From assembly GCA_964623445.1 (NCBI GenBank), contig CAZURD010000003.1, positions 1-40,474 on the forward strand: DNA of 40,474 nucleotides. Direction: 5' to 3'. The notes beneath the pieces are model-generated. The model was not told the origin of the DNA and did no database searches. It saw only the letters and a program-made list of their open reading frames with translations. Each line of letters starts with the position of its first letter. Position 1 is the first letter of the stretch. The DNA comes from an uncultured Prevotella sp. GTDB lineage: Bacteria > Bacteroidota > Bacteroidia > Bacteroidales > Bacteroidaceae. The translations under genes and the position numbers were made by a program. Shown one piece after another: positions 295 through 40,430 of this stretch.

Positions 295-448
295 CGGTTG
301 ATGCCCCGTTATACCGCGTTTTGACGGAAATCGGGGCGCATTCGATGCCCAATCGCGAGGCAACGGGGCATTAAACGGCGGGCAATTAATGCCTTATTGC
401 ACGCCGTTTAATGCCTTATTGCGTCCCAATTAATGCCCCGTTGCGCGG
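295..448. repeat. 22-bp-period array of 17-bp cassettes (copy 1, 7 units, mixed orientation)
   Basis: Units start at 295, 317, 339, 361, 383, 405 and 427, e.g. CAACGGGGCATTAAACG (361), CAATTAATGCCTTATTG (383), CAATTAATGCCCCGTTG (427). Confidence 0.85.
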
Positions 449-611
449 CGGCGAGACTGCTTTTCACGTGGCGAATGAGGCTCACAGGACTTACAGTCCT
501 CATAATCAAGCAGTTGACAAATATGCCTCCAGAATCGCGTATTTGCGGCAAAAGATTTTGTTTCTCAAAAAAACGCCCAAAATCGAGGCTTAAACCTTGA
601 AGTTTTACTTT

Positions 612-690
612 AACCAAAATCGGTAATTAGGCCGTTGTTGCGTTGGGAAAAACTTTTCTTTAAGCCCTTAGTCGGCTTTTGTATGCGCCA
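612..690. repeat. Degenerate end fragment of family A element
   Basis: AACCAAAATCGGTAATTAGGCCGTTGTTGCGTTGGGAAAAACTTTTCTTTAAGCCCTT resembles ATCCCCAAATCGGTCATTGGGCCGTTATTGCGCCGAGAAAGGACTTTCTTAAAACTCTT at 16999. Confidence 0.6.
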
Positions 691-1114
691 ATACCTACTT
701 TCGGTGTTTTCCTTTTATTAACGCCGTGTCACCGCATCTTTCCATATTTTTAACCACAAAAAGTCGGCAATTTAGAATGTTCACCCACTGCAAACGCATT
801 TGCATCACATCCTATATGCAAGGCCAGCGGCGCAATATTGAAGAGCGAACCTAAAATCGCAATAACCTGCTTGCCAACATATTACAACAATAGAACAGCA
901 TAAAGAATTGCATCTGTCAAGGCTCTGGGCACATGAACGGAAAGACAGTGCAGAATGAAAGCACAATTATTAGGAATCGAAAGCATATTTTACAGAATTA
1001 AGAACAGAAAAGAATTGTAACCGTATTCTTCAGAATACCAACAAATTGCGATTGCGTGTTAAAAAGAATATTGTGAATTTTGCACCCGAAATAAAAGGCA
1101 AAAAGGATTTTTAT

Positions 1115-3499
1115 ATGTGGATATTCAACCTAAGAAAGACCGTGCTTCTCGCAGTGGCACTCGTTTCTTTGGCTGTACAAGCCCAAGAGGCGGGCTTGAT
1201 TTCCGGGCGCATCTACACCGCCGACAAGCAGCCTGCCGACTTTGCCGCCGTGCAGCTAAAGGGCACGGGCTATGGCAGCAGGACCGATTCCGCAGGCCTC
1301 TACCACGTGAAAGCACCCGCAGGCGACTACACTCTCGTGGTGTCGGCCATAGGCTATAAGCCCATCGAACGCAAGGTGACGCTGAACGCGGGCGAGCGCG
1401 TGAAGCTCAACTTCCGCCTGAGCGAGGCTTCAATAGAGATCGGCGAGGTGCAGGTGGTGTCGTCGGGGGTGAGCCGCGTGAATAATTCCGCCTATAACGC
1501 CGTGGCCATCGACACCCGCGACATGCTCAACACCACAAAGACGCTCAGCGAAGCGTTGGCCAAGGCCCCCGGTGTGAAGCTGCGGGAGTCGGGCGGCGTA
1601 GGCTCCGACATGAACATTACGCTCGACGGTTTCAGCGGACGGCACGTCAAAGTGTTCATCGACGGCGTGCCGCAGGAGGGTGTCGGCAGCTCGTTCGGCC
1701 TCAACAACATTCCCGTGAACTTCGCCGAACGCATCGAAGTGTACAAGGGCGTGGTGCCCGTGGGCTTCGGAACGGATGCCATCGGCGGCGTGATCAACGT
1801 GGTGACGGGCAAGAAACGCCGCAAGTGGTTCGTCGATGCGTCATACTCCTACGGCTCGTTCAACACCCACCGCTCGCACGTGAACTTCGGACAGACGTTC
1901 GACAACGGGCTGACCTACGAGATAACGGCATTCCAGAACTACTCCGACAACGACTATTACGTGGACGCTCCCGTGTACGACTTTGAACTGGAAAGAATCA
2001 ACGTGAACGATCTCCAACACGTGAAACGGTTCAACGACACCTACCACAACGAGGCAGTGGCGGCAAAGGTGGGTGTCGTGGGGAAGAAGTGGGCCGACCG
2101 ACTGATGCTCGGCTTCACCTATTCGCACATGTACAAGGAAATACAGACGGGCGTAAGGCAGAAGACCGTGTTCGGACAGAAGCACCGCCACGGGCAGTCG
2201 TTCATGCCGTCGGTGGAGTATTCAAAGCGCGACCTGTTCATAAAGGGACTGAGTGTGATGGCCACAGTGAACTATAACCGCAACTCCACGACAAACGTGG
2301 ACACGGCGACATACCAATACAACTGGCTCGGCGAAAGGCGGAAGCGCACGAGCGCGGGCGAGCAGTCGAACCAACTGACGCGCTCCGACAACGACAACTG
2401 GAACTCAACGATCACGGTGAACTACCGCATATCGCGCATACACACGCTCACGTTCAACAACGTGTTCAACTGGTTCAGGCGCGAAAACACCTCGCTGCTC
2501 ACCGCTCAGGAAATCACCGACCCGATAGCCAAGAGGTCGAACAAGAACATCGCCGGGCTGTCTTACCGCCTGATGCCGAACGACAAGTGGAACGCCACGG
2601 TGTTCGGGAAATACTACCGGCTCTACACCGCAGGCCCGGTGGCCACCTCGTCCACCCAGTCAGACTACGTGCGCACCGGCCGCACGCTCGACTGCTGGGG
2701 CTTCGGCGCGGCGGGCACTTACTTCATACTGCCCGGACTGCAAGTGAAGCTGTCCTACGAAAAGGCATACCGACTGCCCACCGTGGACGAGATGTTCGGC
2801 GACGAAGACCTCGAGACGGGCAGCGTGACCCTCAACCCGGAGAACAGTCACAACATAAACGCCGGCCTTAGCTACCAACGCACGTTCGGGCAGCACTCCG
2901 TCTACGCCGAGGGAGGCTTCATCTACCGCGACACGAAAGACTACATACAGCGCCAAATCGCGGAGTTGAGCGGCAACCGCGAGGGAGCTTACTACCACAA
3001 CTACGGACGGGTGAAGACCAAAGGCTTCAACTTCTCGGCACGCTACAGCTTCGGGAAGTGGGTCAGCGTTGGCGGCAACTTCACGCAGATGGACGTGAGA
3101 GACAACGAACGGCTGATGGTGGGAAGCACGTCGGTGGCCAACCCGCTATACAACACGAGGATGCCCAACTTGCCATACCGCTTCGCCGACAGCGACGTGA
3201 ACTTCTACTGGCATGACCTCTGGAAAAAGGGCAACGTGCTGACCGTGACCTACGACAACCAATATCTGCACAGCTTCTGCTACTATTCGGATGGAGTGAG
3301 CGCGACGAACATGGACGAATACATGGTGCCGACGCAGTTCTCGCACAACCTGACGCTCTCTTACAGCATCAACAACGGCAGATACAACTTCTCGCTGGAA
3401 TGCCGCAACTTCACCGACGAGAAGCTCTACGACAACTTCAGCCTGCAAAAGGCCGGGCGGGCGTTCTACGGAAAGGTGCGCGTAAACTTCGGCGGATAG
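1115..3499 (+). CDS. TonB-dependent outer-membrane receptor with N-terminal carboxypeptidase-regulatory-like domain (XusA-like, probable iron/siderophore uptake)
   Basis: Signal peptide after ATG 1115 (MWIFNLRKTVLLAVALVSLAVQA), plug motifs (VFIDGVP; AERIEVYKG; DAIGGVINVVT), LNPENS barrel motif and C-terminal GRAFYGKVRVNF. Followed by DUF4374 and PepSY genes. Confidence 0.93.
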   Translation: MWIFNLRKTVLLAVALVSLAVQAQEAGLISGRIYTADKQPADFAAVQLKGTGYGSRTDSAGLYHVKAPAGDYTLVVSAIGYKPIERKVTLNAGERVKLNFRLSEASIEIGEVQVVSSGVSRVNNSAYNAVAIDTRDMLNTTKTLSEALAKAPGVKLRESGGVGSDMNITLDGFSGRHVKVFIDGVPQEGVGSSFGLNNIPVNFAERIEVYKGVVPVGFGTDAIGGVINVVTGKKRRKWFVDASYSYGSFNTHRSHVNFGQTFDNGLTYEITAFQNYSDNDYYVDAPVYDFELERINVNDLQHVKRFNDTYHNEAVAAKVGVVGKKWADRLMLGFTYSHMYKEIQTGVRQKTVFGQKHRHGQSFMPSVEYSKRDLFIKGLSVMATVNYNRNSTTNVDTATYQYNWLGERRKRTSAGEQSNQLTRSDNDNWNSTITVNYRISRIHTLTFNNVFNWFRRENTSLLTAQEITDPIAKRSNKNIAGLSYRLMPNDKWNATVFGKYYRLYTAGPVATSSTQSDYVRTGRTLDCWGFGAAGTYFILPGLQVKLSYEKAYRLPTVDEMFGDEDLETGSVTLNPENSHNINAGLSYQRTFGQHSVYAEGGFIYRDTKDYIQRQIAELSGNREGAYYHNYGRVKTKGFNFSARYSFGKWVSVGGNFTQMDVRDNERLMVGSTSVANPLYNTRMPNLPYRFADSDVNFYWHDLWKKGNVLTVTYDNQYLHSFCYYSDGVSATNMDEYMVPTQFSHNLTLSYSINNGRYNFSLECRNFTDEKLYDNFSLQKAGRAFYGKVRVNFGG

Positions 3500-3571
3500 C
3501 CTGACACGCGCCCGAACCGACAATAAAGGCAACAATAAAGACAACGACAAAAAACAATATTCACAAACAAA

Positions 3572-5044
3572 ATGCAAACAATGAGAAAGTGTTATCTACT
3601 TGCCGCGATGGCCGCGATGGCCATGTCCGGACTGGTTTTCACCTCGTGCTCCGATGACGACAGCAACGACACGACCAACGGCACGACCGACGGCACGACC
3701 GACGGCGATGGCGGCTCAACGTCGTCCGACACGTATGCCAAATACGTGATAGCCACCACGATTACTGGGTCGGGCAGCACGACCAACATGCTGATAACAG
3801 CCGATTCGCTAAGCGGCGAAATATCTGCCTCGGGGGGGCTTGTCAACGACGGGGCAACCTATTGGGTGTTCCATAGCAACAAGTATCTCTACGCACTGAA
3901 CTACAACCAGGGCGAGTCGGGCACCACCTACTCTTACGAGCGCAACTCGGCCGGCAACATCCAGAGGCGCGACTATGAATATTACATCACCCGCTTCACC
4001 TCATACGGCATCTACGACGACGAGATAATCACTACGTCGTCCGGCGAGGGCAACCCCGACTGGGCCGATGACAGCGGTTACGTGCCCTACGTATTCAAGA
4101 TTACCCACCTCAACGTGGTGGAGGAAACGTCATATAAAAACGAGACTTACAACTCCGACGGCGAATTGGTAGTGGAAGACTCTTCCTACATCTGCGAGAA
4201 CTTCCTCGGCAACGGCGAGTATGTCACGCTTGCAGGAATTGAACAGGTGGGTAGCCAAATCTACTCGGCAGTTATCCCCATGGGACTGACGCAGTATGGC
4301 GCCAACCAACGCGCAGCCGACGGCTCACGCCTCTGGGTTCGCGACGGCTACGACGACCTGATAAAGACGGAAAGCGGCGGCTCGAACTCCGCTTCCTACA
4401 GTGAAGGCGAGCTGCAATACACGCAATGGCCCGACAGCTGCTGGGTGGCAATATTCAGTGACAACAGCTTCACGGAGAAGAAAATCATCAAGACGGGCAA
4501 GATAAGCTATGCCTGCGGACGATACAGGTCGCAGTATTACCAGATGATTTGGGCTACGGACGACGGCAAATATGTCTACGTAATCTCGCCGAGCTATGCC
4601 AAGACCATGAGCGACGAGCGTCAGCAGACCACGCTCGATGCCGGCGTTATGCGCATAGACACAGAGGCAGAGGCTTTCGACGACTACTACTGCAACCTTG
4701 AAAGCCTCTCCGAGAACGGGCTTCAACGCAGCTGGTACATCGGCGACCACAACTTCCTCTTCCTCATGTACGACGGTCCTCTTAGCGGGGCAAGCTCCAC
4801 TGCAACCGTGCTGGCGGTGTTCAACGCCGAAGAGAAGAGCCTCAAAAACGTAGAAGGACTGCCTGACGACGTGTCGGGATTTGGCTCAACGCCCTACATG
4901 GAGGGCGGCATGGCATACGTGTCGGTGAACACCGAGTCGGGTTCTCCCGCCATCTACGAGATTAACCCCTCCACGGGCGAAGCCACAAAGGTGCTCACCG
5001 TGAGCGGAGCGACAACCATCGCAGGTGTCGGCATCATAGACTAA
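3572..5044 (+). CDS. DUF4374-family surface lipoprotein (XusB-like)
   Basis: Lipobox FTSC followed by an acidic SDDDS linker. Motifs [30 protein letters not shown] and [18 protein letters not shown] recognised as DUF4374. Confidence 0.88.
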
Positions 5045-5067
5045 GCGGTCTCACCGCATAATGGCCT

Positions 5068-5101
5068 GTGGGCTGGAGCTGCTTCCACGGCTTCAGCCCA
5101 C
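5068..5101 (+). other. Intergenic stem-loop between DUF4374 and PepSY genes
   Basis: GTGGGCTGGAGC ... GCTTCAGCCCAC inverted repeat with no clear U-tract; possibly an mRNA stabiliser. Confidence 0.55.
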
Positions 5102-5171
5102 TACCCGTAAAAAGGGGCAACGATGTCCCGATATGCCCCATTCTTCCCTTAACCAAAATCCCGAACATACA

Positions 5172-6413
5172 ATGATAAAGAAAATCCACTTGTGGCTCTC
5201 CGTGCCTTTCGGCATCTTGATAACCCTGATATGCTTCTCGGGGGCTATGCTCGTGTTCGAGAAAGAGATAACAGAGGCCATGAACACAGGCCTGTACAAG
5301 GTAGATTCGAGTGCAGGCAAGCCACTGCCAGTGGACGTTGTGGCTGCGCGCGTGGCCGTGACCCTGCCCGAAGATGTCAGCGTCACGGGCGTAACCGTCG
5401 TCCCCGACCCATCGGAGGCATATCGGGTGGGGCTGTCAAAGCCACGCCGCGCCGTGGTCTACGTCAACCAATACACTGGCGAAGTGCTCGGACGGCAGGA
5501 ACGTCCCGCGTTCTTCGCTACCATGTTCAGCCTCCACCGCTGGCTCCTCGACAGCGGACGCCCCGACGGCCGTCCCGCATGGGGCAAGATTGCGGTGGGC
5601 GTTTCCACGATAATGTTTGTCATAGCACTCATCACCGGCATCATAATCTGGTGGCCAAAGTCGCGCAAGGCATTGCGCAACAGCCTCAAACTGACCGTCG
5701 GAAAGGGACGATTCCGCTTCTGGCACAGCCTCCACGTGGCCGGCGGTGTCTACGCGATGGTGCTGCTTCTGGCTATGGCACTTACCGGACTAACGTGGTC
5801 GTTCTCTTGGTATAACCGCGCATTCTATGCCGTCTTCGGCGTGGAAGCCCCCTCCGGAGGCGGTCACGGAGGCGGAACAACGGCCAAGGCGCAGTCCGGA
5901 GGCGGACGGCAGCAGGCGGACGGTGAGCGTGGCGGACGCAGTGGACGCAACGGCAACGGCGGCGAACGTCACGGCAACGGCGAAAGACGCGGCGGCAACG
6001 GCGAGGGACGGCGAGGCAACCACGGCCCCAAAGCGGAACGCAACGACTTCACGTGGCAGCGCGTCTACGACCAACTGAACGCCTCCAACCCGCACGCTGC
6101 ATCGATAACAATAGGCGACGGGGAGGCAACGGTAACGCCGGGAGGATTAGGAAACACCCGCGCCACCGACAGATACACATTCGACAAGGCGACAGGACAA
6201 GTCACGTCGGCCACGCTCTATGCCGACTCACAGGCGCAAGGAAAGATGCGCGGGTGGATATTCTCCGTACACACAGGCTCTTTCGGCGGCTTGTTCACGC
6301 GCATTCTGTGGTTTCTTGCGGCACTGCTTGGCGCAAGTCTGCCCCTGACGGGATATTACTTGTGGATAAGGCGTCTTTACATGCGCCACAAGCACGCAGG
6401 AAATAAAGCCTGA
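5172..6413 (+). CDS. PepSY-associated TM helix domain inner-membrane protein (XusC-like, putative ferric reductase)
   Basis: IHLWLSVPFG, LHRWLL, FWHSLHVAGG and SVHTGSFGG His motifs, with four to five TM segments. Start taken at MIKKIHLW. Confidence 0.9.
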   Translation: MIKKIHLWLSVPFGILITLICFSGAMLVFEKEITEAMNTGLYKVDSSAGKPLPVDVVAARVAVTLPEDVSVTGVTVVPDPSEAYRVGLSKPRRAVVYVNQYTGEVLGRQERPAFFATMFSLHRWLLDSGRPDGRPAWGKIAVGVSTIMFVIALITGIIIWWPKSRKALRNSLKLTVGKGRFRFWHSLHVAGGVYAMVLLLAMALTGLTWSFSWYNRAFYAVFGVEAPSGGGHGGGTTAKAQSGGGRQQADGERGGRSGRNGNGGERHGNGERRGGNGEGRRGNHGPKAERNDFTWQRVYDQLNASNPHAASITIGDGEATVTPGGLGNTRATDRYTFDKATGQVTSATLYADSQAQGKMRGWIFSVHTGSFGGLFTRILWFLAALLGASLPLTGYYLWIRRLYMRHKHAGNKA

Positions 6414-6427
6414 AAACATACGGGCGA

Positions 6428-6452
6428 CGTAACGGGGCGTTACGTTTCTTTT
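6428..6452 (+). terminator. Probable intrinsic terminator of the TonB/DUF4374/PepSY operon
   Basis: ACGTAACG-GGG-CGTTACGT stem followed by TTCTTTT, shortly after the PepSY stop. Confidence 0.6.
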
Positions 6453-6455
6453 CAC

Positions 6456-6463
6456 TATCTTTG
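6456..6463 (+). promoter_or_regulatory. Bacteroidota -7 promoter box for the glutaredoxin-like gene
   Basis: TATCTTTG matches TAnnTTTG, about 95 bp upstream of ATG 6557. Confidence 0.55.
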
Positions 6464-6556
6464 CCGTGTCAAGGAGGCATTCGCTGCCCGCGCGTCTGCA
6501 ACAGGCGGCTGGCAGGCCTCCCGGCATTGGCAATGTATAACGTAACGCTTCAAGCA

Positions 6557-6856
6557 ATGATTAAGATTTATGGAATGGAGACCTGCCCGGACTGCACTTA
6601 TTTGGACGAGCAGGTGAAAGGAAACGACAACTACGAGGTGATAGACATCGGCAAGCACGTGCGCTATCTGAAGGAATTCCTGCGCTTGCGCGACACCGCC
6701 GAGGCTTTCGCCGCCGTCCGCCGCATCGGGGCTGTGGGCATACCGTGCTTCGTTCTCGAAGACGGCACAGTGACGCTGAAGCCCGAAGAGGCCGGCCTGC
6801 GTCCGCGCCCAATGGACGAAGGCTCAGCGTGTAGCATCGATGGCAAGGGCTGTTAA
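6557..6856 (+). CDS. Glutaredoxin-related protein (thioredoxin fold)
   Basis: IYGMETCPDC (CxxC), GIPCFV cis-Pro motif and C-terminal ACSIDGKGC. Confidence 0.85.
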   Translation: MIKIYGMETCPDCTYLDEQVKGNDNYEVIDIGKHVRYLKEFLRLRDTAEAFAAVRRIGAVGIPCFVLEDGTVTLKPEEAGLRPRPMDEGSACSIDGKGC

Positions 6857-6900
6857 GTCCATTTCACGCCAAAACTAAGCCCACTTTACGCCAAAACGAA

Positions 6901-6930
6901 ATTAGGCCGCAACGATGGTTGCGGCCTAAT
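6901..6930. terminator. Bidirectional terminator between convergent genes
   Basis: Perfect 13-bp inverted repeat ATTAGGCCGCAAC-GATG-GTTGCGGCCTAAT. Confidence 0.75.
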
Positions 6931-6964
6931 AGGTTTGTATGCGAAGCCTCCTGGGGCTTTATTG

Positions 6965-7123
6965 TCAGTTCTTGAAGAAGTCCTTCACAGCTTCGTTGGG
7001 CACCATCTTCTCCTCGAAGACATACGCGCCAGTCTTCGGGCTTTTCACCATGCGTATCACCTTGGAGTATGCACGGCCATCCTTTGAACCCTCGTGGAGG
7101 GTTGCCACGGTTTTCTTTGCCAT
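6965..7123 (-). CDS. DUF4295 family small protein (52 aa; below the ORF-track cutoff)
   Basis: Hand translation MAKKTVATLHEGSKDGRAYSKVIRMVKSPKTGAYVFEEKMVPNEAVKDFFKN. It sits in the usual Bacteroidota position after rpmG. Confidence 0.9.
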   Translation of the reverse strand: MAKKTVATLHEGSKDGRAYSKVIRMVKSPKTGAYVFEEKMVPNEAVKDFFKN

Positions 7124-7147
7124 CTCGTGTAGTCTTTGTTACGGTTT

Positions 7148-7336
7148 TTACTTAATCTCCTTGTGGAGCGTCATCTTCCTCAGGATTGGGTTATACTTCA
7201 TCAGTTCCATCCTGTCGGGAGTGTTCTTGCGGTTCTTTGTCGTCACGTAACGGCTCGTTCCGCTCATCCCGCTGTTCTTCATCTCAGTGCATTCGAGTAT
7301 CACCTGCACACGGTTGCCTTTGGTCTTCTTAGCCAT
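7148..7336 (-). CDS. rpmG: 50S ribosomal protein L33
   Basis: [18 protein letters not shown]...[35 protein letters not shown]. Confidence 0.97.
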
Positions 7337-7342
7337 TTTGCG

Positions 7343-7606
7343 TCAGTCTCCTATCACTTTAATGTCTTTCCAGTCGCAGTACCCTTTGGCCACGGCCTTC
7401 TTCAGAGCTGCGTCGAGTCCAATCTTGTTGATCAATCGCAAGCCAGCGGCACTCGTCTTGAGCTGAATCCAGCAATTCTCCTCGACGTAATAGAACTTCT
7501 TCTTGAACAGGTTAACGTCAAAGGTGCGCTTGGTGCGATGCTTCGAGTGCGACACATTGTTGCCAATCTGTGCCCTTCTCCCCGTAATCTGACAAATCTT
7601 CGCCAT
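7343..7606 (-). CDS. rpmB: 50S ribosomal protein L28
   Basis: [33 protein letters not shown]; start at 7606. Confidence 0.97.
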
Positions 7607-7657
7607 CTTTATCTGTTGTTTTCGTTTCTTTTTGAGTTTACTGTTCCAAACAGTTTG

Positions 7658-7689
7658 CAAAGTTAGGGCTTTTTCCCCTAAAAGCCAAA
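7658..7689 (-). promoter_or_regulatory. Primary-sigma promoter of rpmB-rpmG-DUF4295
   Basis: Minus strand TTTG (7686-7689), 20-nt spacer, TAACTTTG (7658-7665). Confidence 0.75.
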
Positions 7690-7771
7690 CATTTGCTTTA
7701 AAAATCAGAATATTATGCCTTTTTTCCACTTCCGTAGAGTGGCCGTGTGGCCTCGGATGGCAGCCCGGCTG

Positions 7772-8275
7772 CTATTCGGCCTGATATTCATCCGCTTTCA
7801 GGAAGTCGAGGAAGAGCTGCATGGCTTTCTTTGTGGCTATGGCGAGGTTTATGTCGCGTCCGTGGTCTTCCTCAACCTTGAACGTCACGGTCTTGGCTGG
7901 TGAGCCACAGGCCAGCCACACCGTCCCGACGGGTATGTCCTTGGAGCCGCCCGTGGGCCCGGCTATGCCCGTTGCGGCTATCGCGAAATCCGTTTCGAGG
8001 GCGTGGCACGCTCCTCTGACCATCGCGATGGCCACCTCCTCACACACGGCCGTCTTCTCTTCGAGCAGTGTGTGCGGTACGCCGAGCAGCCTTTCCTTCA
8101 CCTCGTTGGTGTAGGAGATGATGCCTCCCTTGAAGTATTTCGATGCTCCTGGCACCGAGATGATGGCCTCGGCAATGCGTCCGCCCGTGCAACTCTCTGC
8201 CGTGGCAAGCGTCTGCTCGCGTTCCCAGAGCAGCTGGCTTATCTCCCTGCTGATTATTTTGCTTTCAAATTCCAT
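7772..8275 (-). CDS. cinA: CinA C-terminal domain protein (PncC-like nicotinamide-nucleotide amidase)
   Basis: LATAESCTGG, PGASKYFKGGIISYTNEVK, TGIAGPTGG and PVGTVW motifs. Confidence 0.9.
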   Translation of the reverse strand: MEFESKIISREISQLLWEREQTLATAESCTGGRIAEAIISVPGASKYFKGGIISYTNEVKERLLGVPHTLLEEKTAVCEEVAIAMVRGACHALETDFAIAATGIAGPTGGSKDIPVGTVWLACGSPAKTVTFKVEEDHGRDINLAIATKKAMQLFLDFLKADEYQAE

Positions 8276-12048: not shown

Positions 12049-12175
12049 CAACGAGGCATTAAACGCTGTGCAACGAGGCATCAAGCGCACCGCGTTTTGA
12101 CTTATATCGCACCGCAACGAAGCATTAAACGCAGGCCAACGAGGCATTAATTGCGGGGCAAAACGTCCCATAACG
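12049..12175. repeat. 22-bp-period array of 17-bp cassettes (copy 2, 6 units)
   Basis: Units at 12049, 12071, 12093, 12115, 12137 and 12159, e.g. CAACGAGGCATTAAACG, CAACGAGGCATCAAGCG, CAACGAGGCATTAATTG. Confidence 0.85.
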
Positions 12176-27438: not shown

Positions 27439-27557
27439 CTTGCATAACACACTGGCAAACAATGGATTGCAATAAATGCCTCGTTGCGATGCAACGAGGC
27501 ATAGCTTGAAAACAGCGGAGGCACGCCCGCTTTTTAGTTGCTTATTTGCAGCCATGC
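27439..27557. repeat. 22-bp cassette element (copy 3: dyad + 2 cassettes + tail)
   Basis: CAATAAATGCCTCGTTG (27470) and CAACGAGGCATAGCTTG (27492). Tail TTGAAAACAGCGGAGGCACGCCCGCTTTTTAGTTGC is identical to the reverse complement of 40284-40319. Confidence 0.85.
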
Positions 27558-30025: not shown

Positions 30026-32488
30026 TTAACGGAGCTGCGCTCCAAGTTTGTTTGTCAGGTTGGATGTTATTTTCTGCATTACGGCATCTATCTGCTTGTC
30101 GGTGAGCGTGCGCTCCTCGTCCTGCAATATGAGGTTGATTGCGTAGCTCTTCTTGCCTTCCGGCAGCTTGTCGCCCTCGTAGACATCGAAGAGGGTGACC
30201 CCTTTCAGGAGCTTCTTCTCGGCTTGTCGCGCCGTCTGCTCTATGGCGGCAAACTCCACGGAGGCATCGACGAGCAGCGCAAGGTCGCGGCTTACGGACG
30301 GGAACTTGCTCAGTTCGACGAACTCCACGTGGCTCTTGGCCGTGGCTTTCATCAGTGCCGTCCAGTCGAGTTCGGCGTAGTAGACGGGCTTCGACAGTCC
30401 GAACGCCTTCAAGATCTTCGGCGCAACGATACCCATTTGGGCAAGCGGCTTGCCTGCACGGGTGTCGATTGCGAGGCCGGCGGAGAACACGTCGCACTGC
30501 GTCTTGCGCCTCACCGTGGCGGCCTCGGGCAGTCCGATGCGCCTGAACACGTTGGCGACGTGGGCAGAAAGCTCATAGAACGAGGTGTCTTCGTCGGGGT
30601 GTGCCCAGCTGCCCTCCACCCTCTTGCCCGTGAGCCAGAGTGCGAGGTGGCGGCTTTCGTGGTAGGCTGCCATTGGGTTCTCGGCGTTTTTGCGCTCCGG
30701 GGTGAACTGGTACACATTGCCAAACTCGAACAGACGCAGGTTGGGGTTGCGCCGGTTGGTGTTGTGGGCGATGCTCTCCAAGCCGCCGAAGAGGAGGGTG
30801 CGGCGCATCACGCTAAGGTCTGCGCTGAGGGGATTCATTATCTTCACGCAGCTCTCGGCGGTGTAGGTCTGCTGCATTTCGTAGTACGTCGCCTTGGTGA
30901 GCGAGTTGTTCATTATCTCGCCAAAACCTGCGCCGACGAGCTGTTCGCCTACGGCATTGGACTGTTTGTGCTTGCGGTCTTCGTCCGTCGGTGTCACGAG
31001 GCAACCTTTCAGCTGCGTGGGAATCTCCACATTATTATATCCGTAGATGCGGAGGATGTCCTCAACGACATCGCACGGGCGTTGCACGTCAACGCGATAT
31101 GTCGGCACGTGCAGGTCGACGTAGCCCTCGCCCTCGCCCTCGATGGTCATTTCGAGGCTCTGGCAGATGTCCTTTATCTTGTCGCTGCCTATCTCCTTGC
31201 CCACGAGCGAGTGAACGTAGTCGTATTCAAGGTGTACGTGCGCCCCGTCGATGGGTTCGGGATAAACGTCCCTAATCTCCATCGACACCTTGCCGCCAGC
31301 CAGTTCCTTGCAGAGGATGGCGGCCTGCTTCAGGGCGTAAATGGCTATGTTGGGGTCGGCACCGCGCTCAAACCGGAACGACGCATCGGTGCTCAGGCCG
31401 TGGCGGCGTGCGCTCTTGCGAATCCATGTGGGGTGGAAACATGCGCTTTCGAGCACCACGTTGCGTGTCGTTTCATACGTTCCGCTGCCCTTTCCGCCGA
31501 ACACTCCGGCTATGCACATAGGCTCTTTGGCGTTGCAGATGCTCAGGTCGTGAGGGCCGAGGATGTGCTCCTGTCCATCGAGGGTGATGAACTTCGTGCC
31601 CTCGGGCTGCGTGCGCACCACGATCTTGTGGCCTTCCACCATGTCGGCATCGAAGCAGTGCAAGGGCTGTCCGTATGCCATCATAATGTAGTTCGTGATG
31701 TCCACGATGTTGTTTATCGGCCTGAGACCTATCGTGCGCAACTTGTCCTGTATCCATTTCGGGCTTTCCTTCACGTCGCAGTCGGTCAGGCTAACGCACG
31801 CATAACGCAGGCAGGCCTCCTTGTTCGCTATTTCCACGTCCACGTCGAGGTCGTGGTTGTCCACGGTGAAGGCTTCGCAACCCGGGCGATGGAGAGCCGT
31901 CGGCAGTCCGTTGCAGCGCATCCAGGCATACAGGTCGCGCGCCACGCCCCAATGCGAGAGCGCGTCTGCGCGGTTGGCCGTGATGTCAATCTCTATCAGC
32001 CAGTCGCTTTCGAGGTTGAAATATTCGGCGGCAGGCTGACCCACGGGAGCGTCGTCGGGCAGCACCATGATGCCGTCGTGGCCCGTGCCGAGGCCAATCT
32101 CGTCTTCAGCGCATATCATGCCGCAGCTCTCAACGCCGCGCAACTTCGACTTCTTGATGACGAACTCGCGGTCGCCGTCGTAGAGTACGCAGCCCAAGTC
32201 GGCCACCACCACTTTCTGCCCGGCGGCGACGTTGGGCGCGCCGCACACTATCTGGGAGGGCGTTTCGCGCCCCAAGTCCACCGTGGTCACGTGCAGGTGG
32301 TCGGAGTTGGGGTGTGGCTCGCACGTGAGCACCTTGCCCACGTAGAGGCCGCGAAGCCCGCCGCGCACGCTCTGCACCTCCTCAAGAGCGTCCACTTCGA
32401 GACCCGTCGAGGTGAGCGCATCGCACACCTGTTGCGGCGTAAGGTCGAAATCGACGTACTCTTTGAGCCATTTGTATGAGATGTTCAT
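30026..32488 (-). CDS. pheT: Phenylalanine--tRNA ligase beta subunit
   Basis: MNISYKWLKEY, IVCGAPNV, KLRGVESCGM, ITANRAD, INNIVDITNY, SFRFERG and FDX-ACB C-terminus. Confidence 0.97.
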   Translation of the reverse strand: MNISYKWLKEYVDFDLTPQQVCDALTSTGLEVDALEEVQSVRGGLRGLYVGKVLTCEPHPNSDHLHVTTVDLGRETPSQIVCGAPNVAAGQKVVVADLGCVLYDGDREFVIKKSKLRGVESCGMICAEDEIGLGTGHDGIMVLPDDAPVGQPAAEYFNLESDWLIEIDITANRADALSHWGVARDLYAWMRCNGLPTALHRPGCEAFTVDNHDLDVDVEIANKEACLRYACVSLTDCDVKESPKWIQDKLRTIGLRPINNIVDITNYIMMAYGQPLHCFDADMVEGHKIVVRTQPEGTKFITLDGQEHILGPHDLSICNAKEPMCIAGVFGGKGSGTYETTRNVVLESACFHPTWIRKSARRHGLSTDASFRFERGADPNIAIYALKQAAILCKELAGGKVSMEIRDVYPEPIDGAHVHLEYDYVHSLVGKEIGSDKIKDICQSLEMTIEGEGEGYVDLHVPTYRVDVQRPCDVVEDILRIYGYNNVEIPTQLKGCLVTPTDEDRKHKQSNAVGEQLVGAGFGEIMNNSLTKATYYEMQQTYTAESCVKIMNPLSADLSVMRRTLLFGGLESIAHNTNRRNPNLRLFEFGNVYQFTPERKNAENPMAAYHESRHLALWLTGKRVEGSWAHPDEDTSFYELSAHVANVFRRIGLPEAATVRRKTQCDVFSAGLAIDTRAGKPLAQMGIVAPKILKAFGLSKPVYYAELDWTALMKATAKSHVEFVELSKFPSVSRDLALLVDASVEFAAIEQTARQAEKKLLKGVTLFDVYEGDKLPEGKKSYAINLILQDEERTLTDKQIDAVMQKITSNLTNKLGAQLR

Positions 32489-32526
32489 AGCTGTGAATCT
32501 TGTATTGCTATAATGGAATAATGGCG

Positions 32527-32558
32527 CAAAAGTAATACTTTTCCAGCGTTTAGCCAAA
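32527..32558 (-). promoter_or_regulatory. Primary-sigma promoter of pheT
   Basis: Minus strand TTTG (32555-32558), 20-nt spacer, TACTTTTG (32527-32534). Confidence 0.7.
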
Positions 32559-32807
32559 TTTTTTGCCATCAACCCCTATCTGCGGTCTGGCCGTCAAGGC
32601 GAATTGTGGGTTTGGGACGACCGACTGGGGGTTATCTTTTGGGTGTTAGGGGGTTATGCTTCACGCGGCTTCACTCTGTGCAGGAAAGGACAGGGCATTC
32701 AGCAGCAACCGACATCGACAGGAAATGGGGGAAATCTCGCCCGGCAAAGATTCACGATTACGCCCCGCACAAGGCACACAGCGAAGCCCCGCCCGACTGC
32801 CTCCGCG

Positions 32808-32957
32808 CAACACACAGGCACTCAACGATTTACAAAATGCCTTATTGGCCTCCAATAAGGCATTAATTGCAACGCAATAAGGCATTAATTGGACTCCAAC
32901 GAGGCATCCGTTGCAATGCAATTAGGCATCCGTCGCAATGCGACGAGGGCTGAGCCA
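32808..32957. repeat. 22-bp cassette element (copy 4: dyad + 6 units)
   Basis: Units at 32831 (reverse), 32853, 32875, 32897, 32919 and 32941; CAATAAGGCATTAATTG occurs exactly twice. Confidence 0.88.
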
Positions 32958-33071
32958 CAACCGCGCGGGGTTGGCGGAGTGGCGTTTTGCGCAAAGACAA
33001 GGGCAACCGAATGCCGTTGTTGGTGGCATCCGGTTGCCCTGTTCTTATCTGTCGCCTGCGCTTTCGCGCTG

Positions 33072-33755
33072 CTACTGCCTTGCCTTTTCGTACCATTCGC
33101 GCAGCACCCCGCGCGGCGTTCCAAGCTCCACAATTCTGTCGAGCGTGGCCTTTGCGTCCGATTTGCGCCCCATCCGCAGTTGCACGTCGGCCAGAGAGAG
33201 CAGCAGGTCGGCATCGCTTGGCCTGCGGCGGACGGCTTCTTCCCAGTCGTCGAGCGAGGCGGCGAGTGCCCCCATGTCGCGTTCGAGGCTCGCCCTTGAT
33301 GCGTATGCCACCGCGCTGTCGGGGAACATCTCCACCATGCGGTTCATCTCGTCGAGGGCTTCGGCCTGCTTGTCGCGCATGATGAGCGTGTTCGACAGTC
33401 CGATGCGCGCCTCAAGGTTGTAAGGCGTGATGCGCAGCAGGGCGCGGTAGTCGGCCTCCGCCAGTCCGTATCGCCGCATCTTGTTGTGCGCGAAGGCGCG
33501 GAAGAAGAGCGCGGCGGGGTTGTCCGGCTCCTTTTCGAGCACGAGGCTGTACTCCTCGGTGGCGTAGTCCCACTGCCCAAGCTCCATGTTCACGGCGGCC
33601 TTCCGCAGGTGCAGGTCGGTGGAGTAAGGCGAACGCGCTATCTCCCGACGCAGCGTGTTGAGCGAATCGCTCCATTGTTGCGTTGTCTGCGCCGTTGCCG
33701 CGCACGCCGACAGGGCGACCATTGCGAGCATCGCAGCGCGCGGCTTCATGCTCAT
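33072..33755 (-). CDS. Secreted tetratricopeptide-repeat protein
   Basis: Signal peptide ([23 protein letters not shown]) and several TPR-like repeats (e.g. [22 protein letters not shown]). ATGA overlap with the leuB stop. Confidence 0.85.
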
Positions 33756-34813
33756 GCCTTCGCGATGAAGTCGGCAATCCATGCGCCCACGGCCTTCGTG
33801 CCGTAGTGCGCGCCGCCCTCCACCTGTATTTCCGGCGTGCGCACGTTGGCTTCGAGCGATGCGTCGACGGCGCGGCGGACGAGCGCGCCCTCTTCCTTCA
33901 GGCCGAAATGCTCCAGAAGCATGGCGGCGGAGAGTATCTGCGCCAGCGGGTTGGCAATGTCCTGGCCCTTTGCCTGCGGCCACGAGCCATGCACAGGCTC
34001 AAACACCGGGGTGCTTTCGCCCGTCGATGCCGACGGCAGCAGACCCATTGAGCCGGATATGCAGCTGCCCTCGTCGGTGAGGATGTCGCCGAACGTGTTC
34101 TCCGTCACCATCACGTCGAAGAACGTCGGCTCTGTTATCATGCGCATGGCGGCGTTGTCCACGAACATATAGTCCACGCGGACATCCTTGTTTTCCTCCG
34201 CCATCTCCTTGGCGACCTGCCTCCACAGGCGGCTTGATGCAAGCACGTTGGCCTTGTCAACCACCGTGAGGTGGCCGTTGCGGCGGCGTGCGTAGTCGAA
34301 GCCCACGCGGAGGATGCGCTCCACTTCAGGACGCGTGTAGAGGTTGGTGTCGTATGCCTTGTCGTTGTCCTGATATTTCTCGCCGAAATACATGCCACCC
34401 GTCAGCTCGCGGATGCACACGAAGTCGGCCCCCTCCACAAGCTCGGCGCGCAGCGGCGACTTGTGCAGCAGGCACTTGAACGTCTGCACCGGGCGTATGT
34501 TGGCGTAGAGGCCGAGCTTCTTGCGCATGGCCAGCAGCCCCTGTTCGGGGCGCACCTTGGCCGTGGGGTCAAGGTCGTACTTGGTGTCTCCCACTGCGGC
34601 GAAGAGCACGGCATCGGCCCTTTTGCACGTCTCAAACGTGGCTTCGGGGAACGGGTCGCCAACGGCTTCGATGGCCGCAGCCCCGCAAAGGGCCTCCTCG
34701 TAGCTGAACTCATGGCCGAACTTGGCCGCTATTGCGTCGAGGGCGGCCTTGCCCTGCTCCATTATCTCCGGCCCAATGCCGTCGCCGGGCAGCACTGCTA
34801 TCTTCAGTCTCAT
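33752..34813 (-). CDS. leuB: 3-isopropylmalate dehydrogenase
   Basis: [47 protein letters not shown] and FEPVHGS motifs. Confidence 0.96.
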
Positions 34814-36396
34814 GTCGTTTGTATGTGTTTGTCGTTTGTTTCCTCTATTATGTTGAGCATCTTGAATGTTGCCTTGATGGCCGCTTCGGTCTGGTCGGCA
34901 TCGAGACCGCGCGTGCGCAGGGGCTTGTCGCCGTTGCGCCACGTTATCACCGTCTGCACGAGGGCATCCGTGCGCCCTCCCGGCGGGATTGTCACGGCGT
35001 AGTTTTCAAGCGTGGGGAATGTCTTCCCGAGCGATTCGCGGTAGATCTTCCGCAGGGCTTTCACGAATGCGTCATACTGTCCGTCGCCCGTGGAAGTGGC
35101 CTCGTAGTCCGTCCCGTTGATGCGCACTTTCACGCTGGCCATTGGCTTCAGGCCGTAGGACGAGGAGACAACGTAGTTCACGAGCCTCACCTTGTCGTCC
35201 GGGACGGAGTGTTTCAGCACGTCGCTGACGATGAACGGCAGGTCTTCCTGCGTCACAAGTTCCTTGCGGTCGCCGAGTTCGGTGATGCGCTCCGTGATGC
35301 GCTGCGTCTGCTCGGGGGTCAGTTCAAGCCCCAGCTCTTGCAGGTTGCGCGCAATGTTGGCCTTTCCGCTGTTCTTGCCGAGGGCGTATTCGCGCTTGCG
35401 TCCGAAGCGTTCGGGCACGAGGTCGTTGTAGTATAGCTTCGCCTTGGAGTCTCCGTCGGCGTGAACGCCTGCCACTTGCGTGAACACGTTTTCCCCCACG
35501 ATGGGCTGGTTTGGGGCGATGGGTATGCCGGAATAGTTCTCCACAAGACGGCTCAGGGGGTTCAGCTCGTCCTCGCGGATGCTCGTGAGGGCATGGAACT
35601 GGTCCTTCAGAATCACCTGTACGCTTGACAGCGGAGCGTTGCCGCAGCGTTCCCCCAGCCCGTTAACGGTCACGTGCAGCCCCTTCGCGCCGCAGAGCAC
35701 GGCGGCGAGCGAGTTGCTCACGGCGAGGTCGTAGTCGTTGTGCGCGTGGAAGTCGAAGTGCGCCCCGGGGTAACGCTTCTGCATCTTGCGGAAGAACTCA
35801 ATCACTTGGAGCGGGTTCAGTATGCCGAGCGTGTCGGGGAGCATGAAGCGTCGTATGGCCGTATGGCGCAGAGCGTCCACCACTTGATAGACGTATTCGG
35901 GCGAATCTTTCATGCCGTTGCTCCAGTCCTCTAAGTAGAGGTTCACCGATATGCCGCGCTCCGTGGCGTAGTCAACGCACCGCTGTATGTCGGCGATGTG
36001 CTCCTCGGGCTGCTTGTGCAGCTGTCCGAGGCAGTGCTTCAGCGAGCCTTTGGCAAGAAGATTCACCACCTTGCCCCCGCAACTGGCTATCCAGTCAATC
36101 GAACGGCCGCCGTCCACAAAGCCCAGCACCTCCACGCGGTCGAGCTTTCCGACCTCTTTCGCATAGCGGCAAATCATCGACACCGCCTCGCGCTCGCCCT
36201 CGCTGACGCGCGCGGAGGCCACCTCCACGCGGTCAACGTTTACGTCGTTGAGCAGCTTGCGGGCAATGACGAGCTTCTCGTGCGGCAGGAACGACACGCC
36301 GCTTGTCTGCTCGCCGTCGCGCAGCGTGCTGTCCATTATCTCCACGAAGGGCGGTATGCGGCTGTAGGAGCTGTTCACTTGTTGTGCCGTTCCCAT
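34810..36396 (-). CDS. cimA: Citramalate synthase (second LeuA-family DRE-TIM enzyme)
   Basis: [31 protein letters not shown] and HAHND motifs, LeuA-type regulatory domain with [10 protein letters not shown]; located between leuD and leuB. Confidence 0.82.
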
Positions 36397-36965
36397 GCCT
36401 CTATCTTGTCCTTGCTAGCCACGAGGAAGTCGATGTCGTCCTGCCCGTTCATCAAGCAATGCTTCTTGTACCCGTTTATTTCAAACCGTTCGCTGCGCCC
36501 CGTGGCCTTGTTGGTCACGATCTGCCTCGGAAGGTCCACTTCCACGAGCGTCTTCGGGTCGGCGGCGATGGAGGAGAACAGTTCTTTGAGGAACTCCTCG
36601 CTCACCACTACGGGCAGCACGAAGTTGTTAAGCTCGTTGTTCTTGTGTATGTCGGCAAAGAAGCTGCTTATCACCACGCGGAATCCGTAGCCCGCTATGG
36701 CCCATGCGGCGTGCTCGCGGCTGGAGCCTGAGCCGAAGTTCTTCCCCGCCACGAGTATGCACCCGCCGTAGGTGGGGTCGTTGAGCACGAAGTCGGGGCG
36801 CGGATTGCCGTTCTCGTCGTACCGCCAGTCGCGGAAGAGGTTGTCGCCGAAGCCGGCCTTGTCAGTGGCTTTGAGGAATCGGGCGGGGATTATCTGGTCT
36901 GTGTCCACGTTCTCCAGAGGCAGTGGCACGCAGGTGCTTGTTATGACGTCGAATTTCTGTTTCAT
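36375..36965 (-). CDS. leuD: 3-isopropylmalate dehydratase small subunit
   Basis: NVDTDQIIPARFLK, NFGSGSSREHAAWA and FADIH motifs. Confidence 0.96.
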   Translation of the reverse strand: MKQKFDVITSTCVPLPLENVDTDQIIPARFLKATDKAGFGDNLFRDWRYDENGNPRPDFVLNDPTYGGCILVAGKNFGSGSSREHAAWAIAGYGFRVVISSFFADIHKNNELNNFVLPVVVSEEFLKELFSSIAADPKTLVEVDLPRQIVTNKATGRSERFEINGYKKHCLMNGQDDIDFLVASKDKIEAWERHNK

Positions 36966-36970
36966 CGCTG

Positions 36971-38365
36971 TTACATTAATGTGCGTGGGTCGGTTATCAC
37001 TCCCGTGACGGCGGCTGCGGCGGCCATGAGCGGCGAGGCGAGTATGGTGCGTGCCCCGGGGCCTTGCCGTCCCTCGAAGTTGCGGTTGCTGGTGGATACT
37101 GCATACTTGCCCGCCGGCACCTTGTCGTCGTTCATTGCGAGGCAGGCCGAGCAGCCCGGCTGGCGTATCTCGAATCCGGCCTCGGCAAGGATGCGGTCTA
37201 TTCCCTCCTCGCGTATCTGCCTGTCCACCGCCCACGAGCCGGGCACGAGCCATGCCACCACGCCCTCCGCTTTCTTCCTGCCGCGCGCGATGGAGGCGAA
37301 GGCGCGGAAGTCCTCTATGCGCCCGTTGGTACATGCGCCGAGGAACACGTAATCGATCGGCTTTCCGAGCAGCTTCTCGCCCGGGGCGAAGCCCATGTAT
37401 TCGAGCGACTTCAGGAACGAGGCGCGCCCTGCCTCGTCGATGCTCTCTGCCGTGGGTATGGCCGATGTGACCGCCATGCCCATGCCGGGGTTCGTGCCGT
37501 ATGTCACCATCGGCTCAATCTCGGCGGCATCGAACGTCAGTTCCTTGTCGAACACGGCATCGTCGCCGCTGCGAAGCTCGCGCCAGCGTGCCACGGCGGC
37601 ATCCCACTCCGCGCCCTGCGGGGCATACTGCCGACCCTTGATGTAGGCAAACGTCGTCTCGTCGGGGGCTATGAAGCCGCCGCGTGCGCCCATCTCTATG
37701 GAGAGGTTGCAGAGCGTGAGGCGGCCTTCCATGCTCATGTCGCGCACCACGCTGCCCGCATATTCCACGAAGTAGCCCGTGGCTCCCGAGGTGGTGAGGC
37801 GCGACATGAGGAACAGTGCCACGTCCTTGGGCGTCACGCCCTTGGCGAGCTTGCCCTCGATGGATATGCGCATCGACTTCGGCTTCTGCTGGAGTATGCA
37901 CTGCGAGGCCAGCACCATCTCCACCTCGCTCGTGCCGATGCCGAACGCCACCGCCCCCACTGCGCCGTGGGTGGACGTGTGCGAGTCGCCGCAGACTATT
38001 GTCATGCCCGGCAGCGACAGTCCCTTTTCGGGGCCTACGACATGTATTATGCCGTTGTCGGGCGACATCATGCCGTAGTGCGACAGCCCGAACTCACGGG
38101 CGTTGGCCTCGAGCGTCTCCACCTGATGGCGCGAAACGGGGTCTTCGATGGGCTTGTCCTGGTCGTGCGTGGGCGTGTTGTGGTCGGGCATACAGTAGAT
38201 GCGCTCCGGCCGCAGGCAGCGCAATCCGCGCTGGCGCAGTCCGTCGAAGGCCTGCGGCGAGGTCACCTCGTGGCAGTAGAGGCGGTCGATGTACAGCTGG
38301 CATGGCCCGTCGTCGATGGCCTGCACCACGTGGCTGTCCCATATCTTGTCGAAAAGAGTGTTCAT
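36971..38365 (-). CDS. leuC: 3-isopropylmalate dehydratase large subunit
   Basis: [39 protein letters not shown] and [12 protein letters not shown] motifs. Confidence 0.97.
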
Positions 38366-38379
38366 TTTGTGCTTGGTGT

Positions 38380-39879
38380 TTATTTCCTGAATTTGTTGAT
38401 GCAGTCTATGTAGGCTTCCACCGAGGCCGTCACTATGTCGGTGTTTGCCCCGAAACCATAGTAGACGCTGCCGTCGTGCTCCACTTGCATGTGTACCTTG
38501 CCCACGTCGTCGGAGCCTTTGCTTATGGCTTGGATGGTGAATTCCTTCAGCGTCATTTCCTTGCGGATGATGCGCTTCAGTGCCTTGATGGCCGCGTCCA
38601 CGGGGCCGTTGCCCGAGGACGACTCCTCAAACTTCTGTCCCGAGATGTCGAGGCCTATGCTGGCCACGCTCCTCACGCCCATGCCCGTGGTCACTTGCAG
38701 GTAGTCGAGCTTCACGGAGTGGCTCTCGGCGGTGTCCGCCCCGGCAAGCATGAGGATGTCATCGTCGGTCACTTCCTTCTTCTGGTCGGCCAGACGGAGG
38801 AACTTCTGGTAGATCTTGTCCACCGTCTCCTCGTTCGTCACGGTGATGCCGAGCACCCCAAGGCGATATTTCAGCGCGGCGCGGCCGGAGCGTGCAGTGA
38901 GCACGATGGAGTTGTCGTCCAGTCCCACGTCCTTGGGGTTCATTATTTCGTAAGTCTGCACGTTCTTCAACACGCCGTCCTGATGGATTCCACTGGAGTG
39001 GGCAAAGGCGTTGCGCCCCACCACTGCCTTGTTAGGCTGCACGGGCATGTTCATCAAGCTCGACACCATGCGGCTCGCGGGGTAGATCTTCGTGGTGTTG
39101 ATGTTGGTGTCGATGCCAATCTCGCGGTGGCACTTCAGTATCATGGCAACCTCTTCGAGCGATGTGTTGCCGGCGCGCTCGCCTATGCCGTTCACGGTCA
39201 CCTCCACCTGCCGCGCCCCGTTCAGCACGCCGCTGAGGGTGTTGGCCGTGGCCATGCCGAGGTCGTTGTGGCAGTGGGTGGAGATTATTGCGCGGTCGAT
39301 GCCGTCGACGTGCTCCATCAGATACTTTATCTTCGCACCGAATTCCGACGGCAGGCAGTAGCCCGTGGTGTCGGGTATGTTCACCACCGTGGCCCCGGCC
39401 TTTATCACCGCCTCCACCACGCGGGCCAGATACTCGTTGTCGGTGCGTCCGGCATCCTCTGCGTAGAACTCCACGTCTTCGACGTAGCGGCGGGCATACT
39501 TCACGGCGGCCACGGCGCGTTCCACGATTTCGTCGCGGTTGCTGTTGAACTTATATTTTATGTGCTCGTCGCTCGTGCCGATGCCGGTGTGTATGCGCTT
39601 GTGCTTGGCGTAGCGCAGGGCATCGGCGGCCACGTCGATGTCTTTCTCCACGGCGCGCGTAAGGGCGCAGATGGTGGGCCACGTCACGGCCTTTGATATT
39701 TCGATCACGGAGTTGAAGTCGCCTGGGCTGGAGATGGGAAAGCCCGCTTCGATTACGTCTACGCCGAGCTGTTCGAGCATCTTGGCCACCTGAATCTTCT
39801 CAACCGTGTTGAGCTGGCAGCCGGGCACCTGCTCGCCGTCGCGCAGCGTTGTGTCGAAAATGTAAAGTCTTTCGCTCAT
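38380..39879 (-). CDS. leuA: 2-isopropylmalate synthase
   Basis: [46 protein letters not shown] and GNGPVDA motifs. Confidence 0.96.
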
Positions 39880-39905
39880 ATCTTTTTGTCTTTGGAGTTG
39901 CTTAT

Positions 39906-39947
39906 AAAACCAAAAGACCTTTCCCACCCGTGGAGTGAGAAAGGCCT
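39906..39947 (-). terminator. Attenuator terminator upstream of leuA
   Basis: Minus strand AGGCCTTTCTCACTC-CAC-GGGTGGGAAAGGTCT followed by TTTGGTTTT, 26 nt before the leuA ATG. Confidence 0.8.
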
Positions 39948-39967
39948 GACACTTTGTTTGTATATGG

Positions 39968-40048
39968 TCATGCGCTATATGTCCCACTCCCGTGCGTCCG
40001 CGAAAGTCGGATAATGTTAAGGGTAAGCGATAGACCAATGTATGTCAT
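39968..40048 (-). CDS. Putative leu operon leader peptide (26 aa, [26 protein letters not shown])
   Basis: Four Leu (CTA, CTT, CTT, CTT) and three Ile codons within codons 4-15. Lies between promoter and terminator and contains the antiterminator strand GGAGTGGGA. Confidence 0.72.
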
Positions 40049-40075
40049 GTCTTGATGGCTTGTTGTTTTCGGCTG

Positions 40076-40107
40076 CAAATATAGTGCATTTATTTCATGC
40101 GCACAAA
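40076..40107 (-). promoter_or_regulatory. Primary-sigma promoter of the leu operon
   Basis: Minus strand TTTG (40104-40107), 20-nt spacer, TATATTTG (40076-40083). Confidence 0.75.
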
Positions 40108-40267
40108 TAAATCGTAAGTTTTTGAGGCCAAAATGTGATATTTTTGTTTGCTGGGGCGCAGATGAATGATTGTTTTCCCAAAATGCAAGGAAGAATCCTC
40201 CGCCCCCTCGCGGCGGATGGCTGGGGCTGCCCGCAGGGCGACTTCGCGCCCTTGGCCAATGGCGGGC

Positions 40268-40430
40268 GCATGGTTGCAAATGTGCAACTAAAAAGCGGGC
40301 GTGCCTCCGCTGTTTTCAACAGCTGCCTTATTGCGTCGCAACGGAGGCCGCATTACGCTCCAATTAATGCCGTTTTGGAAGCCAACGAGGCATCCATTGC
40401 AACCCATTGTCTGTCAGATTGTTGTGCAAG
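40268..40430. repeat. 22-bp cassette element (copy 5: tail + 4 cassettes + dyad; inverted relative to copy 3)
   Basis: Units at 40317, 40339, 40361 and 40383; both flanks homologous to 27439-27557 in reverse complement. Confidence 0.87.

Follow-up and report, generated by a model that had tools for sequence, protein, structure and literature searches.

Phased 22-bp cassette arrays in Prevotella: an apparent PINSR homologue whose joints match a transposon attachment pattern

Five intergenic repeat arrays lie in a 40,474-nt stretch of DNA from an uncultured Prevotella sp. (contig CAZURD010000003.1 of assembly GCA_964623445.1, positions 1 to 40,474; hereafter the window). Judged by sequence comparison, they are a homologue of PINSR, a repeat of Prevotella intermedia, and the form taken in this species by an interspersed mosaic repeat found across Prevotella. 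The repeat family is known; its 22-bp lattice with species-specific cassette dialects and its mechanistic link to transposons appear to be new. This resolves the inner structure of PINSR, extends its range to the genus and links it to a first mechanistic partner. We favor, at a probability of about 55%, the explanation that the host keeps the arrays as a phased protein-binding scaffold which recombination at symmetric 11-bp joints reshuffles.

Cassettes occupy a genome-wide 22-bp lattice and flip in register

The window is one contig (C3) of a 182-contig, 2.30-Mb genome (G000) that is 94.8% complete. A first-pass annotation of the window had described five loci of 17-bp cassettes starting 22 bp apart and lying in either orientation. 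All five loci and the slots named in them are present, including the CGTTTTGAC unit that stands in phase at both 317 and 12093. Scanning the genome with a cassette position weight matrix (PWM) refined on this genome, at a cut-off score of at least 13, returned 507 matches, an optimistic count because the PWM was trained on those same matches, and 23 in an order-4 Markov sequence of equal length. Spacing had no part in the training. The proposed register holds throughout the genome, with 631 multiples of 22 among 633 pair spacings of 200 bp or less, as do the in-register flips: 321 pairs are 22 bp apart, 228 in the same and 93 in opposite orientation. The high copy number predicted from the window is likewise found, the matches forming 168 clusters of which 141 have at least two in-phase slots.

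Each unit consists of a 17-bp cassette and a 5-bp spacer whose first and last letters are almost always C or G. The resulting 11-bp joint, TTG-S-NNN-S-CAA, is two-fold symmetric while the cassette core is asymmetric, and exchange at a joint would therefore preserve register in either orientation. Left and right cassette halves assort nearly independently, both cassette ends share a single repertoire of 5-mers, and each orientation is represented among the spacers.

The arrays are nested in longer elements whose arm clusters combine in mosaic pairings, with arm motifs at fixed distances from the array. Among type-A elements retaining both far anchors, these anchors are exactly 198 bp (9 x 22) apart in 26 of 28, at 78% mean identity, a count obtained with a filter that partly fixed the spacing. 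In 10 of 18 linked cases the motif TCGCGTATTTGCG is separated from the nearest cassette by 91 bp; it also occurs beside arrays of three other genomes (G294, G109 and G293). A palindromic arm motif, TTAACATAATTATGTTAA, has 64 matches in the genome, counting both strands. Exact matches to the Escherichia coli IHF consensus lie beside 23 of 141 arrays, compared with matches in 4 of 262 array-free regions. In stacked copies, where arm ends and terminal inverted repeats were judged by eye, no sharp ends, target duplications or terminal inverted repeats are seen; arm conservation fades out. A conserved RNA structure in type-A elements was considered and rejected, no covarying stem being seen. In subfamily B (e.g. 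the C9:14695 region) the array is flanked by an arm with a hairpin of about 60 nt and, after it, a T-run. Folded copy by copy, 14 of 20 matched ones reach z <= -3, and the two hairpin arms appear to covary between copies. The window copy is truncated at 32941-32990.

The arrays share their lattice with PINSR and each species has its own dialect

In the available part of its description (Naito et al., 2016; PMC4755523), PINSR is a 188-bp intergenic repeat with 177-184 copies, lacking terminal inverted repeats, of unknown function and present in four species; about three-quarters of its loci are common to two strains. An nhmmer search with a hidden Markov model (HMM) of the type-A element matched all 14 PINSR-primer loci at 14.6-25.0 bits, against 12.3 for the best of 280 shuffles, the homology spanning the array and adjoining motif and not the full 188 bp. 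All 14 loci also have the reverse primer at the expected distance, four 17+5 units and flips between copies. They share with the element of this genome both the phase and the first cassette, which stands behind the IHF-like motif. The PINSR-F primer has no match in this genome at two mismatches and matches 2 of 400 genus genomes. The arrays are thus PINSR-like in being intergenic, of high copy number, free of terminal inverted repeats and built on the same lattice with slot-level flips, and they differ from PINSR in their main cassette and in having several arm subfamilies. The first-pass annotation had allowed that a full match to an already described Prevotella repeat would remove its novelty; PINSR is a described relative that lowers it.

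A strict cassette pattern proved too dialect-specific for a wider survey, finding 0 of 40 relatives, 0 metagenome loci and 5 genome loci. With a joint-to-joint pattern, 57 of 400 genus genomes have at least 20 matches by hand count, each with its own cassette; this is a lower bound because one genome (G406) scores 0 yet has 415 matches to its own dialect. The reversed-pattern control of this survey is not valid as a negative, since cassette cores of other dialects match it. Outside the genus, a three-joint pattern gave one match each in 2 of 200 genomes and none in the other 198. The cassette dialect is particular to each Prevotella species, an observation that we did not find in print. Our literature search, whose coverage left out most subscription journals, returned no description of the 22-bp lattice or of transposons targeting arrays, and the part of the PINSR description consulted mentions neither a lattice nor flips, and neither a wider distribution nor targeting by transposons (PMC4755523).

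Three further observations concern this distribution. One genome (G294) holds a homogeneous family of elements of about 400 bp, in whose copies (L093-L112) the four-cassette core is almost invariant while neighboring arm positions vary freely. A contig labelled Clostridiales (L011) bears the dialect of Prevotella sp. UBA2850, which may reflect a binning error. Between a metallophosphoesterase gene, probably sbcD, and an HU-HIG gene stands one conserved 22-bp array whose unit number varies (L047-L051, L059; G108, G383, G057, G142, G089, G289).

Transposons of related Prevotella insert at array joints

As a sequence pattern, the array joint TTG-N5-CAA matches the published attachment (att) site of the transposons MTnPi1-3, given in the material available as TTAC or TTGC followed by NNNNN and AA (Table S3; PMC4755523); we did not find this correspondence in print. 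The TTRC-N5-AA core is present at the joints of this genome, and its use for integration is seen in relatives. Homologues of a tyrosine integrase located beside an array occur in 11 of 49 array-rich relatives. This set comprises 28 loci, 6 without a resolvable end and 1 a duplicate, leaving 21 distinct left ends. Two in-phase joints lie upstream of 19 of these 21, compared with 4.6% of 1292 background TTR-N5-YAA sites in the same genomes. Elements with both ends fetched split the array at a joint with no cassette duplicated, and the 5 bp at attL and attR differ in 6 of 8. Variable coupling sequences of this kind are a behavior of Tn916-type elements. The 5-bp spacer behaves as the coupling sequence of these transposons, again not found in print.

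The transposons at array joints are 14-19 kb long with tandem tyrosine integrases. From size, integrase tandem and att pattern, we infer kinship to MTnPi1-3. In the part consulted, a review places MTnPi1-3 among elements of low specificity with a preference for AT-rich regions (PMC5704250). We reclassify MTnPi-type elements as array-targeted instead of low-specificity; this predicts landing sites of cargo-bearing elements in Prevotella. Integrase homologues also occur in 11 of 60 pattern-poor genomes. Of 30 loci there, 7 have a resolvable close-family end, and 4 of these 7 abut 22- or 44-bp periodic DNA; three of the dialects there are genome-wide, with 42, 94 and 415 matches.

Several insertions depart from the common form. 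In G292 (L143 / L159) a transposon lies inside a complete PINSR-type element while other insertions there use another dialect, a mismatch that suggests transfer of the surrounding segment. Transposon ends in G157 (L200, L217) adjoin same-orientation 22-bp arrays without TTG/CAA ends, and in L200 three units stand between two tandem elements. A distant integrase group (48% identity; L197, L206, L211-L214) has left ends starting TTAACATAA, half of the type-A arm palindrome, and the flank in L213 is 22-bp periodic.

Arrays change by whole units and are spaced apart on the chromosome

Comparison between strains for changes in unit number had been proposed, and such a change is found at the 40317 array. 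Contigs of runs X4 and X5, both from one study, show 67 letters at this array in place of the window's 45, a gain of 22 bp, and an X3 contig over the locus has 1251 letters against 1229. A near-identical strain (X1) shows 8 differences in 176 bp, three of them adjacent within one spacer, likely a block swap. Run X3 also contains a candidate empty site at 32576-32994.

Flips vary in subfamily C, where 48 of 64 arrays have at least one. The first-pass annotation had held that simple slippage does not produce the flips, and in agreement, within subfamilies, neighbors of opposite orientation resemble each other no more than shuffled pairs do. Pooled tests of neighbor likeness are weakly positive, which probably reflects subfamily structure.

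As tallied with our own simple gene caller, none of 141 arrays overlaps a gene; 42 lie between divergent, 39 between tandem and 11 between convergent genes, with 49 at contig edges, and no intergenic region holds two arrays. Array density per kb of natural intergenic DNA is 0.60 in divergent regions and 0.26 in both tandem and convergent regions, a ratio of about 2. Each of the five window arrays precedes a gene start, which fits the earlier claim of a position before operons; genome-wide this position is usual, not obligatory. Arrays are also spaced apart. Only 1 of 48 neighbor gaps is shorter than 5 kb, where four nulls that keep to intergenic positions predict 12.4-17.6; under each null 0 of 1000 draws were as low. 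On chromosome 1 of P. intermedia OMA14, using the coordinates of the PINSR paper, 13 of 119 gaps are shorter than 5 kb against 27-31 expected from a simple exponential.

A host scaffold reshuffled at its joints is the favored explanation

Under the favored explanation, spacers would be swapped by transposon insertion and excision, and recombination between two inserted copies, or short inter-locus conversion, would join half-arrays in either orientation. Joining of half-arrays could give rise to flips, 22-bp gains and losses, mosaic arms and species dialects. Shuffling is taken to be non-local because halves assort nearly independently, flipped neighbors are not local copies and arms are mosaic. 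An IHF-like factor together with a host protein would bind the lattice, probably organizing the nucleoid, and transposons would probably home on the bound complex or its shape instead of the cassette sequence. The fixed element length at 78% identity and the even spacing in this genome point to a selected protein scaffold. The same two features and the IHF-like motif lend indirect support to the protein-binding lattice suggested by the first-pass annotation.

A number of results weigh against this explanation. No lattice-binding protein was identified among the candidates considered, the four HU-family matches showing no clear link to the arrays. The filter behind the 198-bp count weakens the argument from fixed length, and OMA14 chromosome 2 has no gap deficit (20 of 56 gaps below 5 kb against 21 expected), which counts against even spacing as a general rule. 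Many flips are inherited and not recurrent in subfamilies A and B: 39 of 45 subfamily A arrays have no orientation switch, and in subfamily B 25 of 32 arrays show a single one, placed in most cases at the terminal slot. Six insertions into PINSR-type arrays that could be oriented by eye all face one way, with no case of the opposite direction, and the three other resolved ends of the pattern-poor set, all in one genome (G012), show no visible array. This genome, 94.8% complete in 182 contigs, encodes two PF00589 proteins, and neither an integrase of the transposon family nor a clear transposon end was found in it; the shuffling step is therefore carried over from relatives. In a distant genome (G318) an array stands at 1 of 15 array-adjacent genes, within chance for the 400 kb of 2.5 Mb examined, and arrays have therefore been gained and lost over long times. 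The explanation does not cover the route by which whole elements reach new sites.

A rival explanation is a selfish non-autonomous element. The lattice geometry would then be demanded by the mobilizing enzyme, and transposons would exploit the most abundant safe target. Abundance is patchy among species, the G294 family is homogeneous, positions differ between distant species, and the minimum spacing could be target immunity. We nevertheless regard this strongest rival as unlikely: stacked copies lack sharp ends and target duplications, with arm conservation fading; searches of this genome and of two array-bearing genomes of 2 contigs each gave no Y1/RAYT transposase; and roughly three-quarters of PINSR loci are common to two strains in the available part of that account (PMC4755523).

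The arrays could alternatively be built by the integrase itself, if shifted excision placed a host cassette on the transposon circle to be left at the next site either way round. The unit is a cassette plus a coupling sequence, ends are in register even in dialects without TTG/CAA, one dialect is present only at an insertion site, and the arm palindrome is similar to the right end of the transposon and to the left end seen in the distant integrase group. We consider this origin improbable. Rejoining the flanks of one insertion (L141) yields a normal four-cassette PINSR, 8 of 8 elements have different cassettes to either side, no end carries a foreign single cassette, and the integrase was not found here or in 38 of 49 array-rich relatives.

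Dispersed Rep3 iterons, titrating an initiator or coordinating a second chromosome, are a more remote prospect still. Rep3 genes of Prevotella carry 22-bp iterons, a viral-collection contig (L069:3718-4121) has lattice-matching 22-bp iterons before two Rep3 genes, and a host-dialect array lies upstream of a conserved Rep3-like gene in 4 of 11 genomes (L259, L262, L260, L255). Against this stand the absence of Rep3 in this genome by HMM and tblastn, its presence in only 23 of 60 genomes, which do not include the array-bearing G223 and G157, and a protein about 84% identical between genomes of different dialects. The part of the P. intermedia account consulted reports no iteron-like repeats near its Rep_3 gene (PMC4755523).

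Least probable of all, with hardly any weight left, is a neutral minisatellite flipped by local hairpin template switching at the joints, since the permissive joint symmetry, exact reverse-complement neighbors (7 of 93 against 4.2 expected, p=0.12) and slightly alike same-orientation neighbors in subfamily C (p=0.005) face a lack of excess inverted neighbors or inverted spacers within subfamilies, together with fixed element length and array spacing. The same lack of neighbor excess led us to reject local slippage or hairpin copying as the chief origin of the flips.

The scaffold explanation has a wider form that we put forward tentatively and hold to be doubtful: that the Prevotella chromosome may be organized by a dispersed, evenly spaced lattice of two helical turns, whose dialect would drift by species through integrase shuffling and which transposons would find by its geometry or bound protein and not by its sequence. 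Neither ScpA nor MukB was found in five genomes (0/5 each), which leaves room for another organizer and proves nothing. No dif site was found in this genome with the pattern used. If the scaffold explanation is true, the arrays would constitute a testable chromosome-organizing element where the usual SMC partners were not found.

Features of the window

The coordinates of arrays and arms are collected in Table 1. The six-slot array sits between divergent genes for a citrate transporter family protein and an FGGY kinase. Read as its reverse complement, the arm left of the 40317 array matches the one that follows the two-cassette array. No Rfam family, whether a known RNA or a CRISPR repeat, reached its gathering score in the window or in 8 relative loci. 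A second mobile-element end, of the TTAA-CCCAAATCGGTC-TTAG type, lies near window position 620; it has 69 copies in the genome, 30 within 400 bp of a cassette, and also flanks a PINSR-type array in L054.

Table 1. Arrays, arms and motifs in the window.
Position	Strand	Feature	Detail
295..443	.	Array of seven in-phase slots, subfamily C	295, 317, 339 degenerate; 361+; 383-, 405-, 427-; mixed orientation
504..516	+	Exact match to E. coli IHF consensus in element arm	
535..547	+	Arm motif	TCGCGTATTTGCG
12049..12175	+	Array of six slots	12049+, 12071+, 12115+, 12137+; 12093, 12159 degenerate
27470..27508	.	Two-cassette array	27470-, 27492+
27509..27551	+	Conserved arm	Ends TTTTTAGTTGC..TTTGCA
32809..32957	.	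Subfamily B element upstream of pheT	Left arm conserved, hairpin arm truncated; slots 32831-, 32853-32919+
40273..40316	-	Conserved arm of element upstream of leuA	
40317..40399	.	Array	40317-, 40339 degenerate, 40361-, 40383+
40356..40360	+	Spacer with three adjacent changes in X1	
40450..40467	+	Copy of palindromic arm motif	Consensus TTAACATAATTATGTTAA

Comparison with known systems

The first-pass annotation had offered BrickBuilt, a MITE of Porphyromonas gingivalis, as an analogue. BrickBuilt is likewise an intergenic repeat array between a conserved leader and tail, but it is the wrong comparator: in the part of its description consulted it consists of 23-nt direct repeats without spacers, in 19 copies with insertion sequence-type terminal inverted repeats (PMC4596501), and by eye its unit consensus looks unrelated to the cassette.

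The REP/BIME repeats of enterobacteria and pseudomonads, as far as the material consulted describes them, resemble the arrays more closely, with more than 100 extragenic copies, regularly spaced units of mixed orientation, species-specific sequence and an IHF-type site (PMC2817692). The cassettes, in contrast, have an asymmetric core without the GTAG-tagged hairpin and are enriched at divergent, not convergent, regions (PMC2817692). RAYT (PF01797) is absent here and in 4 of 5 array-bearing genomes. By analogy, the arrays may work like BIMEs, yet they fall outside REP/BIME for want of the GTAG hairpin and of RAYT.

Iterons of Rep3 plasmids share the 22-bp period. In R6K and pSC101 an IHF site is adjacent to the iterons. 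The present arrays differ in being dispersed, some 140 in number and of mixed orientation, in a genome without Rep3.

Tn4555 provides a precedent among Bacteroidota for a tyrosine-integrase element steered to a host repeat, one of 207 bp reached via TnpA according to the section of the review available (PMC5704250). The same source gives Tn4555 one target locus (PMC5704250), whereas the transposons described here have dozens to hundreds of arrays per genome at their disposal, with sequences specific to each species.

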